Origin: Rotaria socialis
Taxonomy: Eukaryota
Direction: 5' to 3'
NCBI GenBank assembly: GCA_905331295.1
Contig: CAJNYD010000034.1
Location: 186,001-250,000 of the forward strand
DNA length: 64,000 nt
Part shown: positions 2,130 to 20,993 of the stretch, piece after piece
How the letters are laid out: the number at the start of each line of letters is the position of its first letter
How positions within the stretch are numbered: the stretch's first letter is position 1
The notes under the pieces: model-generated
Told to the model about the DNA's origin: nothing
Database searches by the model: none
What the model saw: the letters and a program-made list of their open reading frames with translations, nothing else
Translations under genes and position numbers: made by a program

Positions 2130-2430
2130 CTTCGTAGTTCTTACAATTTGGATCATATCTATTGAATTGATTTCATACACAGTTTCTGTTAAAAATAAAT
2201 GTGTCATATATTTTCTGCTCTTTCATACATGTGACTCGTTGTATCTTACAAGTAGAAATCGTAAGCTATTCTTCTATAAAGCTGAATTAATCTAAAAAAT
2301 CATGAATTCTTGCATTTCTCTAGAGAACTTCTTGTCTTTTGTTTCTTTTTGCTAATTTCTAGATATTTTTAACCTGTCCTATTTATTCACCATAAATAAT
2401 ATCAAAAACAACAGCATTATAACAACAAAG

Positions 2431-3389
2431 ATGAAATCTACAACGTCAAAACTTGTCATTATTGTCTTATTTTTCGTGGATACTGCTCAAGTGGCTGCTA
2501 GTGCTGATTTCGTTCACTTACGTCCACAAGGTCATTGGCCACATTGGCTGGCCGAATCCAGTGATAATCGAGATGATGCACTGAAAATATGGAATAAAGA
2601 AAAACTGACTAGTGGATCCAGTGAAAGCCGTACGACTCCGTCACCAATCGAAATGTTACATTCGAAACCATCATTCAAAGGTACATTTTGTTTCAATTGT
2701 TTTCTTCGAAAAATCATCTTTGAGTTTTCCTTACATATTCAAGAAGCTTTATAGTTATTGAATAAATCTTTCATTTTATTTAGGATGTACTGATCCATCT
2801 GAACCATTTCAATGTCCACAAAGTGAACGATGTATTGCTTTACAGTTTATTTGCGATGGTCAACCAAATGATTGTCCTGATAATAATGATGAAAATGAAG
2901 AGACATGTATAGCAGGTAAATAGATACTTGTGTAGTATTGAAAAAAAATGAGCATCCTTTTTTTCATGTCCATACAGTCAAAAGACCAGCAAAAGAAAAC
3001 ATTGAAAATTTTCTTCGTGCTGTGTATACGTTACATGGTTTACGATTGTTTACATTTTTATTCGGTCAAACTTTTTCTAAAACTATTAAAAAGAATATGT
3101 CATATTGGTTGGAAGCTTTAGCCTCGGCATTTTCAGGTAAGAATCTTTTATTGTTTGTTTTACTAGAACATTTTCAAAACTTTCAAATATTTTAGTATCG
3201 AAAAATATTCGTATTTTTGGTACAAAATTACGAATGCCATCAAAAGATCTTGCACATTTTCGGCGTATCATACAAAAAATTCACCAAGGACTGTTGGAAG
3301 AAATCCCATTATTTGCACAGGAAGCCGTAAATCAAGGATTGGCGTCATTGATTGAAAAACTTCATAAATCCGGATTCATGGAAGAATAA
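2431..3389 (+). CDS. Prohormone-4 (IDLSRF-like peptide) family precursor with an LDL-receptor class A domain; 4 exons
   Basis: Exons 2431-2680, 2784-2915, 2978-3136 and 3196-3389 join in frame via GT-AG introns. Hydrophobic signal-like N-terminus, LDLa repeat CTDPSEPFQCPQSERCIALQFICDGQPNDCPDNNDENEETC, then AVKRPAKENIENFL...FLFG, typical of the prohormone-4 C-terminal domain. Confidence 0.8.
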
Positions 3390-3829
3390 ATGAAAAAATA
3401 TATATGTTTATATGTAATTTTTGAAAATTCGCGAGTACGAAAAAAGAAAAAGAAAAAGAACACAAAAATAAATATTTGAAAATACGATTGACCTTTTTGT
3501 TTTTCTTATTCTAAACTATGTACGCACTTCCATGTGTGATGATGTAGAATCAACTATTTACACATATGTACGAGTTGAACTTTTTCACTTCCTTAAATTT
3601 TATGTAGACATGTAAAATATGAAACATGGGGGCAAACATAAAAATGCTTTTAAAATAAGCACAAAATACACTGATAGCAGACAAATGCTGTTTCAACAAA
3701 TATTATTCGTGACTAATAGTATTTTCGTCATCGAATATGTACTAATTCTGCCGTATAAATATCGATTCCTTTTTGTTTGAAATCTCACATGAAAATAAAT
3801 ACTCAGTTGAATTCAATAAATAATTACAA

Positions 3830-6012
3830 ATGCCAAGTTCAGCATCTGTAGAAGGCATTCTTCATGGTGATGATAATCAACGTTTGAATTATCTTGTACA
3901 AGTTTTTGCTAAATATCAAATGACAGGAAAACGATATGAAACTAAAACATGGCATGCTTATTTTCGACGTATTGCCATTAATCCTGTTGTATTCTATCAA
4001 CATAATCATGCACTTTTTTATGAAGATAATCAAAGTGATAAAGATAATTTTCAAATTCATGAACCGACTTATATTCATGGTGATTTACATATTGGCCAAT
4101 TTCATTATTACTTTGATGATACTACTAATGAGCGAATATTTCAAATACGACAACATACAAAGAAAATTGCACCATTTACGTGGGACCTGAAACGTTTAGC
4201 AACTAATCTTGTACTTATTGGCTATTATCAAGGTTTTAGTGATATTGAAATAATTGAAATATTGAAAGCGTTTATTCAACAATATATTAATAGGGTTAAA
4301 GAAATTAAAAAGATAAATTTCTTTCGACAAAATTCAAATGAAGAAAACCAAATCCATCAAACCAAATCATATTTATTGCAAGGTCAATGCTCAGTTATTG
4401 ACTCAATACCAGTTCAGCAAGAAATGCATGAAATCGATTGGAAAGAATTAAATTCTGTAGCTAGTTGGATAATTTTAGCTGAACAATTGGCTATTACTGT
4501 TGCTGATTTGCATTGTCAATCAACTATTTCTGTGTTACCAACAGAAAAAATAGTAGAGAAGAATCCTGATTATTCACTGCGTATTATTCAAGCTGCTTTA
4601 TCATCGAGTGATCAACAGTATGAGTTAATTCAGGAAATTTGCTATTTCGCTATGAATTATGCTGAAATAGCTGAACACGATCATCGACTATTTTTTAAAT
4701 GTTTTCGTAATGAAACAATATTCAACGGCATTCTTATGGGTAATCATCGACAAATGCCACGTTCATTAGTCAGTGCTCGTTCATTGTCTATATTGATTGT
4801 TGGTGGTGGTATTGGCGGTTTGGCAACGGCATTAAATTTTGCTCAAGCTGGAATACGAGTTAGATTATTCGAAAAAAATTCTGAATTTAGTGAAGTTGGT
4901 GCTGGCATGCAATTAGCACCTAATTGTAGTCGTGTACTCGATCATCTTGGTATTTTAAAACAAGTACAAGCTAATGCTGTTTTTCCTAAACAAATTGTAT
5001 GGATGGATGCTCTATCTGGCCAAAGACTTGGCTGCATAGATTTAGGACCTAAATTTATTGAAACATTTAAATATCCATATATAGTTGTACATCGAGCTGA
5101 TCTTTTGAATGCGCTTTATCAAGCATGTTTTGCTGATCCATTAGTAACACTGGAAACAAATCGTTTTGTAGTAAGTGTTGACGAACGACCAAAATCAATC
5201 ATGGTTGAATGTGCTGACGGTACACGTTATGATTGTAATATGGTAGTTGCGGCCGATGGTCTTTGGTCGTCGTTAAGAAAATTTGTTCATGATGATGGAG
5301 CACCGCTTAGTGTTGGTTATGTAACCTATCGAGGTACAATAGATATCAGTCAAGTTTCAAAAGAAGCTGGCCTGGAAAATGTACAATTTTGGATTGGACC
5401 TGATATGCATCTGGTACAATATCCAATTCGACGTGGAGAATTATTTAATCAAGCAGCGATATTTAAATCAAAAAGAGTACCCGATGATACAGACGAATGG
5501 GGAACACGAGAAGAACTTAATCAACATTTTGGTATCGGATGTGAACATGTTAAAAATGCTTTGAAACTAATACAAAGTAATATACGATGGCCCGTATATG
5601 AGTAAGTTTATGTGTGTATTGAGTTCGCATAATTTTGTTCCTGTATTATTTTAGTCGTAATCCATTGTCGAAGTGGAGTCATGGCCATTTGGTGTTACTA
5701 GGCGATGCAGCTCATCCGATGTTACAATATGCTGGCCAAGGTGCTGCACAAGCATTGGAAGATGCGGATGCACTTGTAAGTGCTTATAAGAAATATGGAT
5801 CATTAAATCTTGATGCCGCATTTCGAGAATACGAACGAAAACGAATACCACGTTCATCAAAAATTGTCCAATTTGCACGTGATATTGGCAATTTTGCACA
5901 TTGTGATGGTGTCGCAAAGATTGCTCGTGATGCAACATTAAAAGCGCATGATATGAATGATTATGAAATTTTGAATTGGTTATATGCAGCTGAACAAAAA
6001 GACAGCGAATAA
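3830..6012 (+). CDS. Fusion: degenerate DUF2252 (kinase-like) domain + group A FAD-dependent monooxygenase (3-hydroxybenzoate 6-hydroxylase-like); 2 exons
   Basis: Exons 3830-5601 and 5655-6012; intron gtaag...ttag restores WPVYD-RNPL. N-terminal part has IHGDLH, PFTWDLKRLA, IDWKEL...VADLH and FAMNYAEIAEHDHRLFFKCFRN. C-terminal part has GGGIGG, EVGAGMQLAPN, VHRADL, AADGLWSSLR, HLVQYP and LLGDAAHPMLQYAGQGAAQALEDA. Confidence 0.9.
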
Positions 6013-6702
6013 AACTAGATTATATCTTGCATATGTTTTTGTGTTTAATGAATATATCGAATTTTGATAAGCTATTTCGTTATTTTTCTCTTTTTGTTTA
6101 TTATACTCAGTTATCCGTTCTAATAAAATGCTATTCTATTATGATGAATTAAATTTTTAAAAAGTAAACTTATTTTTGTTTCCACTTCGTATTGTTTTGC
6201 TAACTATTCTTCCAAGAAAAATCAATTATGTAATCACAATTTGAGTACAAAAACATATCCCGTAAAATAGAGTATTTAAACTGAAATTTCTATGAGTTCT
6301 GCACAAGCACGCGCGCACTATTTGCACAGTTCATTTTTCTATGGATCATATTTGTCGAGTATTTAGCGTAATAATTTTGAAAATGTATGCTAGTATCCCA
6401 CGCACACTGAGTGCATGCATTCGCTAAAGAGATTTGACTAGTTTTACAAAGAAACACTTCGAAGAAAAATACGCGAGCTTATGCGTACAATGAATAAACA
6501 TAAAATATAACTAATTAATAACTTTTCATTCATTTCATTCATTATTGTCGAAGAAATTGTAAAGATTCGCATTATTTTTTTTATTTATAAAGCTAAATTG
6601 ATAAGTAAAATTTCAGAAAAATGGCACAATATTAATTGGAAAAAAGAATCGAACATTTAACGAATGAGAGAGAAATAAAAGTTTCTTTTAGTTCTTATTT
6701 TA

Positions 6703-8743
6703 CTATTCACACATTCTTTTCAATGCAATAATTGCTTTTTTCAGTAATGTGACAAACTGAAATATGTCAGTAAAACTATTGTATAATGGTGCAGGTGCTA
6801 TTCGAATAATATCGTCGCGAATATCGATCTAAAAAACAAAGTAGTATTGGATAATTCGTGAACGTCAAATAATCGTGATTGCTTTTCTACTCACGACAAC
6901 ACCAACTTTCTCTAATTCATCATGAATCTGTTGAGCAGTTATACCGATAGGTCGAAATGATAGTTGAGCACCACGTTCTTGAGGATTAAGAGGAGTCAAT
7001 AAAGTAAATTGGCACAATCCTGTATCTTTATATAGGATAAAAATAGGACCATCTATAATTATTTGAATAAAGAATATAAAACAATAGGTACCTGCTAATT
7101 CAGTTTGAAGTAGATACTGGAGATATTGAGTAGCAATCATTGATTTCGCTCGAATTTGTTCGATTCCTACGTCTTCAAAAATCTATGAAAAAGAAAATAG
7201 TTTCTGTAACTTTAATCAAAACTATCTAGTTAAATTACCTCTAAACTAGCAGCAAGAGCAGCACATTGATGAATAGACGGATTACTAACACGAAAACCAA
7301 GAGCAGTAGTATCTCGATCAATATCTACAAATAATAGTATCTACTATTTACATGAAAATCGAATCAATGTCACGTACTATCCAACATGGCAAATCGGGTT
7401 GATTCTTGATTACTCCACCAGCCGTCAAGTGTTGTCAATTGAGTATCTTTCAAATTACTTGAATGTACAAATACTCCACCAATACATCCAGCTCCACCAT
7501 TTAAGTACTATATTCACAATGAGAATACAATATTGTCTTTTTTAATTTCAATAACCTACCTTATACGTACACCAGACAGCAAAATCAACTTGCCAGTCAT
7601 GTAATTTCAATGGTACATTACCAACTGCATGTGCTAAATCCCACCCAACACAACAGCCCTAAACAATGTTCAAGACAAACAGAGAATAGATTCACTATTT
7701 ATTTATTTTTGGCAATATGATTATTCATACTTGTTTATGAGCAACACGTGTAATAGTTTCAATATCGAATAATTGACCTGTATAATAATGTATACCGCCA
7801 ATCATGACAAGAGCAATTGAATGACCTTCACGTTGAAGTACTTCAACAATATCTTCAGTTCGTAAACAACATTCATTCTATAAGAAAAACTAAACTTTTA
7901 AAGAAATTATACATTGTGATCAACTTACTTCGCGTGCTTTGAGAACAATTTTTGCATCTTTTGGATCATAGCCATGTAATTTGATTTGTGAATTAATGGC
8001 ATATTGATCACTCGGAAATGCATGGTCTTCGTATAGAATTTTATAACGCTCACCTTTAGGTTGATAAAACGCTGTCTGTTAGTAGTCAAAAACAGACAAA
8101 GAGTTTTAGACTTATTATCTATTTTGTACAAAAAGATATTTACCATCATAAAATGAAGATTTGATGATAATTGATTCATAACAGCGACCTCTCTGATTTG
8201 AGCACCAACTAACAAACTCATAGTTGGTATACATGAAATATCACACTTTGCCCAAGGATTTGAACCAGTAAAATGACCATAAACGCCTCTATTACAAGAA
8301 AAGAGATAAGTTGAAGTGTGTTTCCTAAATAAAAGCAAATCATTTAATTTACAAAGTAGCCCAGTCATGCATAAATGCATCCATATTTTGCCATGTTTGT
8401 ACAGGCATTAATCCAAGCGATTGACCACAAAGATATATGCATTCATGAGATGGTTCAACTCGTTTTTTATCAACTAGAAAGCAATAATTTGATTTTCGTT
8501 TTACTTTATCAAAATGATATTAATTCTTTCATACAGACCATTCGGTAATGTTTGCAATTTCGGATAGAAAAATTTCTGTCGGACATAACCAAGAGGATCT
8601 TGATCATCCATACTTAATGCAAATTGTTTTGTATTTAATTCTGATTGAAATTGAAGCGCTTTTCTGTTGAGAAACGATTGTGGTGATTGATCATCATCGA
8701 GCTGAAAGAATTCTTGCCTGTTTATATTTTTTAAAAGTACCAT
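6703..8743 (-). CDS. KYNU: Kynureninase (PLP-dependent), multi-exon
   Basis: Spliced translation gives [87 protein letters not shown] (PLP lysine), FRVSNPS, ERGAQLS and [15 protein letters not shown]; stop TAG at 6703-6705. Confidence 0.95.
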
Positions 8744-16379: not shown

Positions 16380-17096
16380 ACACTTTTCGTTTCTTGTTGC
16401 ATATAAAGCATATTCAACTACATTCAGATGTAGTTGATTAATATGATGTTGTTGTCGAACATCAGGTATCCCAGAAACTATTTAAAAAGTATTTTCGAGT
16501 GTTACACGTGTTGTATCAAATTGTGCTTGTTGTACAAGATTAACAATAATTGTTCTTGTTTTACGACGACAAATGTCAACAAATTCTTTAGCAGATGAGC
16601 AAATTACACCAGTCATGATTTCCATCCAAACAAGTCGTTCTAAGGTACCACCTATGGAATCAACAATTCCTTTTCCATGTGATGATGTAAAATAGTTCCT
16701 ACTAAAATTAATGTCGAACTTGTCCATCATGGTTGTTAAATGCTGAATAACATAACGATTCTTAAATTGACGGGCAGCACCATCTGAGAAGAAAATAATT
16801 TCATTAACGTCTGACATAATGTTGATAATTTCTTCAACAAGATTTTCCAAGCAGGTAATAACACAATATTTATCATGTTTAGCCGAGTCAGCTACAAAAC
16901 CGAACGAATAACCTTCTCCACCACTGTTGCTCATCCAAGCATAAGCTGTAAATATGGAAACTTGCTGATTTGACCAATGTGCCGATTGTATTTGGTCTTG
17001 ATTTACTAACGTAAAATTTTCGGAATAATCAACCTGGCAGATTACTGTTCCAACTTTCAGACCAATCGTTGATGTTTCTAAATCACAACTGCGCAC
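16380..17096 (-). pseudogene. Truncated Sola-like transposase
   Basis: VDYSENF...IQSAHW, FFSDGAARQFKNRY and FTSSHGKGIVDSIGG motifs; no intact 5' part; TAA at 16482 with coding-like sequence continuing beyond it. Confidence 0.75.
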
Positions 17097-19856: not shown

Positions 19857-20306
19857 TTAGGTACTGTCAGCATAATTATTATATTTTCTGTCTCTATTTT
19901 TTGTTCTTTCTCTTTGTTTCCTTCTTTCATATCCTGTTCTTTCTAAATCTCGATGATTAACGTTCACATTATAAGTATTCCCTAGCAAATCACCAAGTCT
20001 CTCAACGAGAGCTACTGACCGATGTCGTCCTTGTTCACATCCAACAGCTATTGTTATAGAGTTTTTGTTATGTTCATTAATGAAATTCTTCAATTGTTCA
20101 ATAATCGTTTCAAGAAAACCTTCGTATTCTGCTAAATGTAATAATTCATTTTGTATCCGTTGATGTCGTCCATCATATTGCTGGTAGTTCTCCACGTTAG
20201 TAACTGGTAGATGACGTATTGAAAATAATAAATCAACATCTATTGGAACACCAAACGAATGGCCAAAAGAGAATAATTTTATATTGATATCTTCAACTTG
20301 TGCCAT
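19857..20306 (-). CDS. Stand-alone RapZ/YvcJ C-terminal-domain protein (~149 aa), intronless
   Basis: From ATG 20306 (MAQVED): LFSFGHSFGVPIDVDLLFSIRHLP, YDGRHQRIQ, ITIAVGCEQGRHRSVALVERL, VNVNHRDL. These match RapZ CTD motifs SFGFKxGxPxDAD..D.R.LPNP and GCTGGxHRSV. Basic C-terminal tail. Confidence 0.85.
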   Translation of the reverse strand: MAQVEDINIKLFSFGHSFGVPIDVDLLFSIRHLPVTNVENYQQYDGRHQRIQNELLHLAEYEGFLETIIEQLKNFINEHNKNSITIAVGCEQGRHRSVALVERLGDLLGNTYNVNVNHRDLERTGYERRKQRERTKNRDRKYNNYADST

Positions 20307-20993
20307 TGCAATCAAAAATTGAAAGAAACTAACCAATACTTCAATACAAGTTATTTTTGAAAAATTTATTAAAAAGATGAAATAAGTAAATGTTAGAAAA
20401 CATTGCTTTTTTCTTATGCAAAACGACACAAGAAAAACAAAAATTGTGTAATAATGATGAGTCACTGTCATCGATCGCATAGTTATCGTTGAAGATTTCG
20501 TTGATATATTATTCATGTATTTATTTTTAAAATGCATCCATTAAATAGTTTGATAGCGAGTCTTGAAATCCATGATTTATTTTTGTAAAAATAGTTTCAT
20601 GAGTAGATTAACAAAGAAAACATTACACTTCACTAAATATTCATGTTTTTAGGAGTGTTGCTCGTTATTCAAAGATGATTTTTAGTTCAATGTTGATTAG
20701 CTATTTTTAACTATGAACTTGAAAATCTTTTCTATATTAATGAAGAGAAGTCGTAGAGTAAATTGAATAATGAAAGCTTGTCTAAAATAGCTATTTAATC
20801 ATCGCTTTGCATGTTTGAACAACTCTTTTTTTTGTAGTAGACGAGAACACTCCAAATAAATAATCAAACGGTCTGTCGACGATCTTATGATGCATCATGT
20901 GTGATTCTATGGAGACTTATTCTAGGGATAGAAGTCTCAAACAGATATTAATTAGTTGAAGTGTTTTTCTTCGCATAACTTCATTTTACATTA

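Follow-up and report, generated by a model that had tools for sequence, protein, structure and literature searches.

A bdelloid rotifer gene joining a truncated DUF2252 module to a 3-hydroxybenzoate 6-hydroxylase-like monooxygenase

Closest described systems

The gene described here lies on the forward strand of a 64,000-nucleotide stretch of Rotaria socialis DNA (the window; GenBank assembly GCA_905331295.1, contig CAJNYD010000034.1, positions 186,001 to 250,000), at positions 3830-6012 of that stretch, and encodes a truncated DUF2252 module and a flavin monooxygenase in one chain. The best described counterpart of the monooxygenase is 3-hydroxybenzoate 6-hydroxylase (3HB6H), known from Rhodococcus jostii RHA1 (PDB 4BJY, 4BJZ and 4BK1), a phospholipid-assisted homodimer that turns 3-hydroxybenzoate into gentisate at the expense of NADH. 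In this enzyme His213 serves as the base and Tyr217 as the carboxylate anchor (passages on this enzyme in PMC5472690 and PMC6043778). Gln301 of the same enzyme favours hydroxylation over decarboxylation, and Trp362 is a pocket-shaping residue (section 12 of PMC13559804). DUF2252 (PF10009) belongs to the protein-kinase-like clan, with its N- and C-lobes in swapped order (parts of PMC9758233 and of bioRxiv 10.64898/2026.09.18.752743 that treat the family); in the literature naming it, no substrate is described. In TvaE/TvaF, LanX/LanD and RosX, an APH-like fold devoid of catalytic and Mg-chelating residues occurs beside a flavoprotein, and TvaE and RosX act as cyclases and protect the intermediate of the flavin decarboxylase (passages of PMC12291118). 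The bdelloid N4CMT, a bacterial DNA methyltransferase with a chromodomain, is an acquired enzyme that gained a domain in a bdelloid genome (part of PMC10406627).

The rotifer protein shares with 3HB6H the fold, the three FAD motifs and the equivalents of Tyr105, His213, Tyr217 and Gln301. The differences relate to the N-terminal module of 300 residues, the eukaryotic intron, the lack of a gentisate operon context, the replacement of Trp358 by Ile and Trp362 by Ala, a polar Gln519 on the pocket strand, and a Lys (Lys660) in place of the lipid-phosphate Arg350. Compared to DUF2252 proteins, including intact bdelloid copies, homology extends along both retained blocks and the family landmarks are kept, whereas about 150 residues with the Gly loop and Lys are missing, the Mg-binding Asn and the DFD motif are lost in 32 of 32 fused modules, and the module is joined to an enzyme. 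TvaE, LanX and RosX are bacterial proteins in their own right whose substrates are peptides, next to a flavoprotein that is a Cys decarboxylase, and the resemblance is one of analogy, not kinship. Proteins of this type typically keep both lobes. In contrast to N4CMT, where the domain gained is a eukaryotic one whose function is known, the rotifer fusion is formed from two parts of bacterial origin, the added one being a truncated and apparently dead enzyme. Domain fusion after gene transfer is already known in bdelloids from N4CMT; what is unusual here is the half-kinase. No description of this protein was found in the DUF2252, 3HB6H or bdelloid horizontal-transfer literature, although supplements could list the gene, and the main text of PMC11258130 mentions neither a monooxygenase nor a hydroxylase. 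The statement of a preliminary description, made from the DNA sequence alone, that no protein of this architecture had been described agrees with that search.

Structure of the fusion gene and its two domains

The frame opens with the ATG at 3830 and contains no stop up to the GT donor at 5602. Among nine GT/AG pairs tried near the break, the segment 5602-5654 (53 nt) was chosen, the removal of which restores WPVYDRNP. Exons 3830-5601 and 5655-6012 together encode 709 residues, ending at 6012, and this spliced product matches R. socialis protein P0251 at 100%. The intron site is shared among relatives: with genes predicted unspliced, 20 of the 32 read P-V-Y-E there. Assembled contigs of two sequencing runs from two studies, X1 and X2, have been read as RNA from their many spliced joints and the poly(A)-like end of a neighbouring gene.

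3830..5601, + strand: exon 1 of the fusion gene, from the ATG to codon 591 phase 2, 1772 nt, intron-free (open reading frame; X1 contigs cover 3787-5601)
5602..5654, + strand: GT-AG intron, 53 nt (splice-pair trial; X1 and X2 contigs; site common to relatives)
5655..6012, + strand: exon 2, with GDAAHPMLQY, in which Q615 corresponds to Gln301 (5725-5727), and with I668 (5884-5886) and A672 (5896-5898) in place of Trp358 and Trp362 (alignment to 3HB6H and rotifer rows)
4724..4777, + strand: variable interdomain linker (spanned by one contig in each of two runs; 36% identity)

The contigs of both runs omit exactly 5602-5654. Those of X1, with short overlaps between them, tile 3787-6165, and the domain junction is spanned by one contig in each run (X1 record 2, 4446-4973; X2 record 8, 4677-4910). 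Coverage begins at 3786-3787 in both, which hints weakly at the 5' end, and X3, X4, X5 and X7 cover short pieces only. The single exon joining both domains and the spliceosomal intron, as first read from the sequence, are thus borne out, and every coordinate of the preliminary description has been verified. Met codons are present at 4736 and 4754, and separate transcripts starting there had been named as a possible objection; the contigs are continuous over this region (~4730-4790). Since the junction is crossed in both runs, and a Met occurs within 22 residues ahead of the monooxygenase in just 7 of 32 relatives, separate expression through an internal start appears unlikely. At 4034-4048, in a loop of the module, X1 and X2 share five differences from the window within 15 nt, possibly a divergent allele.

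The N-terminal part of the protein is organized as follows:

3830..4309, + strand: block 1 of the DUF2252 module, residues 1-160, with the helical subdomain, the catalytic loop and the next helices (Pfam 45-163; HHalign 99.7%; AlphaFold2 predicted local distance difference test, pLDDT, mostly 77-99)
4076..4102, + strand: degenerate catalytic loop HGDLHIGQF (Mg-binding Asn replaced by Gln in 31 of 32; Asp position D in 24, N in 8)
4139..4165, + strand: site of the lost NDFDE metal-binding motif, reading FQIRQHTKK (motif kept in 0 of 32)
4310..4423, + strand: deletion scar, residues 161-198, standing for about 190 residues of intact DUF2252 (low pLDDT, 29% mean identity)
4424..4723, + strand: block 2 of the module, residues 199-298, with the DW..A..H C-lobe helices and the C-terminal DHRLFF..FRN helix (alignments, HHalign)

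Both domain assignments of the preliminary description, DUF2252 (PF10009) and FAD_binding_3, were recovered by Pfam. The DUF2252 profile matches residues 45-163 (E 8e-20, 72 bits at a gathering cut-off of 22.3), and a further stretch is also matched. In HHalign against intact DUF2252 (99.7%, E 6e-26) both retained blocks are homologous, and the landmarks HGDLH, FTWDLKR, DW, A..H and DHRLFF..FRN are retained. The alignments show that the fused proteins hold both ends of DUF2252 without the middle, at a net loss of about 150 residues. The span from Tyr152 to Trp204 is 30-66 residues in 15 fused rows (median 51), compared with 188-227 in 52 intact rows (medians: 206 for the 20 bdelloid rows, 201 for the 32 bacterial ones). 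The missing segment includes GIGSAG and the xxMK strand, absent from all fused rows, which in kinase terms are the Gly loop and the strand of the ATP-binding Lys. The Gly loop, DFD and HxxNF are each kept in 0 of 32 fused modules; the catalytic-loop Asn is lost in all 32, with Gln in 31, and NDFDE is replaced here by RQHTK. None of the signatures of an active kinase (HGDLHxxN loop, NDFDE, Gly loop with Lys strand) is found in the fused modules. The preliminary description had already read the altered loop as HIGQF, noted the absence of NDFDE and suspected a deleted middle, and it proved right on all three.

The Pfam APH profile, applied to the intact DUF2252 protein P0027, aligns residues 26-139 with profile positions 117-230, i.e., the first third of the protein with the C-terminal half of the profile. 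The motifs, taken together with the lobe order given in the above parts of PMC9758233 and bioRxiv 10.64898/2026.09.18.752743, suggest that the deleted segment corresponds to the N-lobe; a search of the ESM Atlas with that segment of an intact protein returned no usable match for this label. The fused module is therefore likely to be a lone, catalytically dead C-lobe. Of the dead kinase-fold module proposed at the outset, the loss of catalytic motifs stands, and a whole two-lobed pseudokinase does not, since the Gly loop and Lys segment is gone. For the same reason, the C-lobe alone probably being left, an ATP-sensing pseudokinase role of the usual kind is unlikely. The AlphaFold2 model of the module alone (pLDDT 84, predicted template modelling score, pTM, 0.86) contains short catalytic-loop strands and helices only, with the scar as the sole disordered part; in the full-length model (pTM 0.64) the linker is at low confidence. 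VIA, run with the module model, returned kinases or kinase homologues in 10 of 50 rows, all on C-terminal ranges and weak (Z 4.1-4.7; root-mean-square deviation, rmsd, 1.9-7.2). Searching PDB sequences with intact DUF2252 (hmmsearch) gave four chance rows and nothing else. In the ESM Atlas the module resembles bacterial DUF2252 at 0.89, which is a lead only.

The C-terminal part comprises the following features:

4778..6009, + strand: group A flavoprotein monooxygenase, 3HB6H-like, with GxGxxG at 4802-4819, DG at 5216-5221 and GD at 5701-5706 (Pfam and NCBIfam, Foldseek, alignment)
5408..5422, + strand: H527-x-x-x-Y531, equivalent to His213 and Tyr217 of Rhodococcus 3HB6H (alignment to 4bjy)

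The GxGxxG, DG and GD motifs of group A flavoprotein monooxygenases (Fig. 5 legend of PMC5472690) occur in one chain, as GGGIGG (325-330), DG (463-464) and GD (607-608), which places the enzyme in this group. Pfam FAD_binding_3 covers the C-terminal part, and the top NCBIfam model is PRK08163, 3-hydroxybenzoate 6-monooxygenase. Foldseek with the full-length model gives the R. jostii enzyme (RjHB6H) as best match (template modelling score 0.91 by target, rmsd 2.0, 38% identity). H527, Y531 and Q615 line up with His213, Tyr217 and Gln301 of 4bjy, so that the HLVQY at 5408-5422 and the Gln of HPMLQY at 5725-5727 had been located exactly; no exception to H527 and Y531 occurs among the 31 rotifer rows that have letters there, nor to Q615 among the 14 rows containing exon 2. 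I668 and A672 are likewise found in 14 of 14 rotifer rows, while Trp stands at each of these two positions in 26 of 41 bacterial relatives; Trp358, like Trp362, we presume to have a role in the 3HB6H pocket. The enzyme is predicted to be a 3HB6H-type hydroxylase of small aromatic acids, 3HB6H-like and not necessarily 3HB6H proper, and probably an active para-hydroxylase with a wider pocket. Since both tryptophans have been exchanged and the pocket remodelled, the substrate may differ and need not be 3-hydroxybenzoate. The first reading as an active 3HB6H-type aromatic hydroxylase therefore keeps its His, Tyr and Gln, while its substrate is no longer a given.

Distribution, origin and selection

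The fusion is real, old and restricted to bdelloids as far as the searches reach. It was seen in four Rotaria species, in Adineta steineri and, decayed, in Didymodactylos. The module search returned 27 matches, 25 of the fused type and two bacterial stand-alone proteins; all fused rows with a species name are bdelloid (R. socialis, R. magnacalcarata, R. sordida, R. sp. Silwood2 and Adineta steineri), the remainder being metagenomic. In the monooxygenase search, the best 120 of 4246 matches comprise 33 rotifer-type rows followed by 87 non-rotifer proteins (389-444 residues, about 50% identity), 0 of 87 carrying DUF2252. With the module profile, an unindexed hmmsearch of 1.84 billion representatives found 125 matches, of which five have a monooxygenase part, all rotifer-type. 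Across 80 bacterial DUF2252 loci (924 kb) no 3HB6H-like gene was found (0/80), with just two weak, distant flavoprotein matches, and no conserved neighbour, in genus-level, unannotated neighbour clusters, ties DUF2252 to aromatic metabolism. A wide spread of the same fusion among bacteria, which the preliminary description held to be fatal to its case, was thus not seen.

All rotifer 3HB6H-like matches fall in one clade (Shimodaira-Hasegawa-like approximate likelihood ratio test, SH-aLRT, 100), no unfused alternative being seen, and Didymodactylos carnosus, whose fusion has a decayed module, is the first branch of the monooxygenase tree. Didymodactylos represents the deepest known split of the class (part of PMC7943196), and the bdelloid families separated more than 60 million years ago (part of PMC4632278). 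The frame is unbroken in dozens of independent assemblies and in L001, the sole locus obtained from 354 candidate stretches in a scan of JGI metagenome contigs, in which 1975 upstream bases are unlike the upstream gene of the window. Word-limited searches gave no fused match named Adineta vaga or A. ricciae, which does not imply loss; intact DUF2252 was found in both.

Intact stand-alone DUF2252 proteins are present in bdelloids in at least 40 named rows among the best 120 matches of the best non-fused match used as query, under seven species-level names, with at least five in A. vaga. With three partial proteins of the 40 excluded, GDLHxxNF is kept in 37 of 37, and NDFD, the Gly loop and the Lys in 36 of 37 each. 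Fused modules nest within the bdelloid stand-alone clade in a quick tree of 66 rows (SH-aLRT 100) and in a careful tree of 30 rows (100/100); the Didymodactylos fused row, too decayed, and alignment columns 289-548, the deletion edges, were left out. A bdelloid profile is best for 22 of 25 modules, the best single match is bdelloid for 20 of 25, and diagnostic columns favour bdelloids by 13 to 4. Because intact bdelloid DUF2252 genes exist and the module nests among them, it is likely to have arisen in the host from a paralog of this resident family. The gene has bacterial nearest relatives, a spliceosomal intron, metazoan neighbours and a spliced transcript, as befits a horizontally acquired and host-integrated gene. 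From the original proposal of two fused, horizontally acquired genes, the host-integrated fusion of bacterial-type domains is retained; as the separate phylogenies suggest, the module probably came from bdelloid-resident DUF2252 genes, not straight from a bacterium.

The intact bdelloid kinases (P0259-P0346) appear as an expanded, lobe-swapped family that forms a single clade, bacterial in origin and close to Chloroflexota/cyanobacterial-type proteins; no literature on these bdelloid proteins was found. One full-length stand-alone member, P0290 of Didymodactylos carnosus, reads NNFNE for NDFDE and has lost the Gly loop, a second independent catalytic loss in the family.

Mean identity among 24 full-length relatives is 57% and 54% for the two folded blocks, 29% for the scar, 36% for the linker and 80% for the monooxygenase. 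Compared to L001, the module shows nonsynonymous (dN) and synonymous (dS) divergence of 0.31 and 0.96 (dN/dS about 0.32, one pair, simple counting), and the codon comparison indicates purifying selection on it. Of 92 conserved module positions, 23 are new (in at most 10% of intact rows), clustered at residues 31-68 and 90-93.

3920..3973, + strand: fusion-specific motif, residues 31-48, with M31, K34, Y36, E37, H42, R47 and I48 fixed in fused copies and different in intact kinases (row comparison)

The neighbours in the window are intron-rich animal-type genes, including an ABC transporter and a kynureninase:

6703..8743, - strand: kynureninase gene, multi-exon, convergent with the fusion (TIGR01814, E 2.7e-9 on one exon; spliced contigs, poly(A)-like end at 6566)

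The product of kynureninase, 3-hydroxyanthranilate, is 3-hydroxybenzoate with an ortho substituent and is accepted by 3HB6H. It is a possible candidate substrate of the hydroxylase, and the metabolic link is a lead only. Directly upstream of the fusion gene, a small spliced gene (2361-3389, + strand) carries an LDLa-like cysteine motif and presumably resembles prohormone-4. An open reading frame at 19857-20540 (- strand), similar to the C-terminal part of the RNase adapter RapZ (PRK05416, E 1.5e-23), is probably another bacterial-type rotifer gene. An intron-less piece at 16482-17096 (- strand) has zero NCBIfam matches and looks transposon-derived.

Competing explanations and significance

The explanation judged somewhat better than even is that of an active aromatic hydroxylase bearing a kinase remnant as a putative non-catalytic accessory domain for docking or ligand-holding. 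One 709-residue chain would thus combine the remnant with a flavin monooxygenase predicted to para-hydroxylate a phenolic aromatic acid with FAD, NAD(P)H and O2. Bdelloids would first have received two bacterial genes, one for an intact DUF2252 kinase and one that was 3HB6H-like; an intron-poor, perhaps mRNA-derived, DUF2252 copy would then have joined the monooxygenase before the split of Didymodactylos from Rotaria and Adineta. Because the swapped lobes place the N-lobe mid-chain, it could be excised, leaving a closed, foldable C-lobe. The non-catalytic C-lobe would have fixed a new surface (residues 31-68 and 90-93) round the former substrate side, as a likely binding site for a partner, a membrane lipid or a small molecule, and the hydroxylase, losing two pocket tryptophans, probably accepts a bulkier substrate of the 3-hydroxy- or 3-aminobenzoate type. 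A bolder version, in which the half-kinase C-lobe is a ligand-binding regulatory domain of an animal-specific hydroxylase with a new substrate (for instance the 3-hydroxyanthranilate made by the adjacent kynureninase) and has persisted for over 60 million years, is rather unlikely.

Several observations weigh against the accessory-domain explanation or its parts. Foldseek with the module model gave zero matches at E<=0.001, so that the kinase fold is not confirmed by score, and the best VIA Z of 5.3 is at background level. PRK08163, scored as two exon pieces, reaches 243 + 108 bits, a sum below the cut-off of 459. The stem of the fused modules is long (2.65 changes per column), an approximately unbiased (AU) test does not reject their placement beside distant bacteria (p=0.128), and intact bdelloid genes show signs of introns (read-through or breaks) where the fused gene is intron-free, a difference compatible with a separate import and equally with a copy made early or from mRNA. 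In the same single pair the scar has a dN/dS of 0.36, which leaves folded and unfolded parts unseparated. With Kimura distances of 0.64-0.73 for the module and 0.23 for the enzyme, the module is changing about three times faster; it has decayed in Didymodactylos to 20.9 Pfam bits, under the cut-off, and the gene models P0031, P0041 and P0033 (the last flagged partial) are without its first half or all of it. Since it is decayed in Didymodactylos and apparently truncated in two gene models, the evidence argues that the module is not strictly essential. P0031, P0033 and P0041 belong to one clade of paralogs (R. sp. Silwood2, A. steineri), and what their gene models lack could reflect a true secondary loss or a model error.

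The faster evolution, the decay and the truncated models, together with the single clade lacking any unfused form and the mostly hydrophobic-core nature of the inherited conserved residues, would suit a stuck passenger: the fusion gave the monooxygenase a promoter and start codon (or improved its solubility), and selection just keeps the remnant folded. Such a history is doubtful, though the strongest of the rival accounts, as the module is retained in several paralog lineages older than the Rotaria-Adineta split, the new polar and charged K34, Y36, E37, H42, R47, Q57, N59 and Q90 exceed the needs of folding, and a plain N-terminal truncation would be easy. Import of an already deleted and fused form from an unsampled bacterium, or of the module by a separate transfer, could draw on the AU test, on the intron-free exon 1 over the whole module and on a nearest bacterial profile slightly better for 3 of 25 modules; it is nevertheless improbable, given that the only fused matches in the 1.84 billion representatives are rotifer-type, that the 87 nearest non-rotifer monooxygenases and the 80 bacterial loci offer no such pairing, and that the module groups with bdelloid genes in both trees. 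A remnant that has newly come to catalyse a reaction of, or to channel, the substrate or product of the monooxygenase, like LanX or TvaE beside their flavoenzyme, is a slighter prospect still. The near-invariance of H83, H87, Q90, D119, R122 and H228, the precedent of TvaE and RosX, and the presence of TvaE among the weak VIA rows (Z 4.1) speak for it, but most of these residues are inherited structural positions, Asp85 is freely D or N, the pocket-closing N-lobe is absent and the VIA score is at background level. That two adjacent genes were read as one, through a join made in assembly or by coincidence, is refuted for practical purposes: the Met codons at 4736 and 4754 and the GC content of the gene halves (0.305 vs 0.38, though at third codon positions equal, 0.17-0.18) are set against an unbroken frame in dozens of independent assemblies and L001, single contigs across the junction in two studies, and the scarcity of a linker Met among relatives.

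The fusion indicates that horizontally acquired genes were recombined inside an animal genome, no bacterial example of the architecture having been found, and that a lobe-swapped kinase can apparently lose its middle yet leave a folded C-lobe under selection. It also draws attention to an expanded bdelloid family of intact DUF2252 kinases, so far undescribed, and to a relative of 3HB6H whose pocket may be naturally widened, both proteins being easy to express and assay. If the regulatory half-kinase version were true, these rotifers would have an aromatic pathway specific to animals, and half a kinase would be working by itself as a regulatory module.

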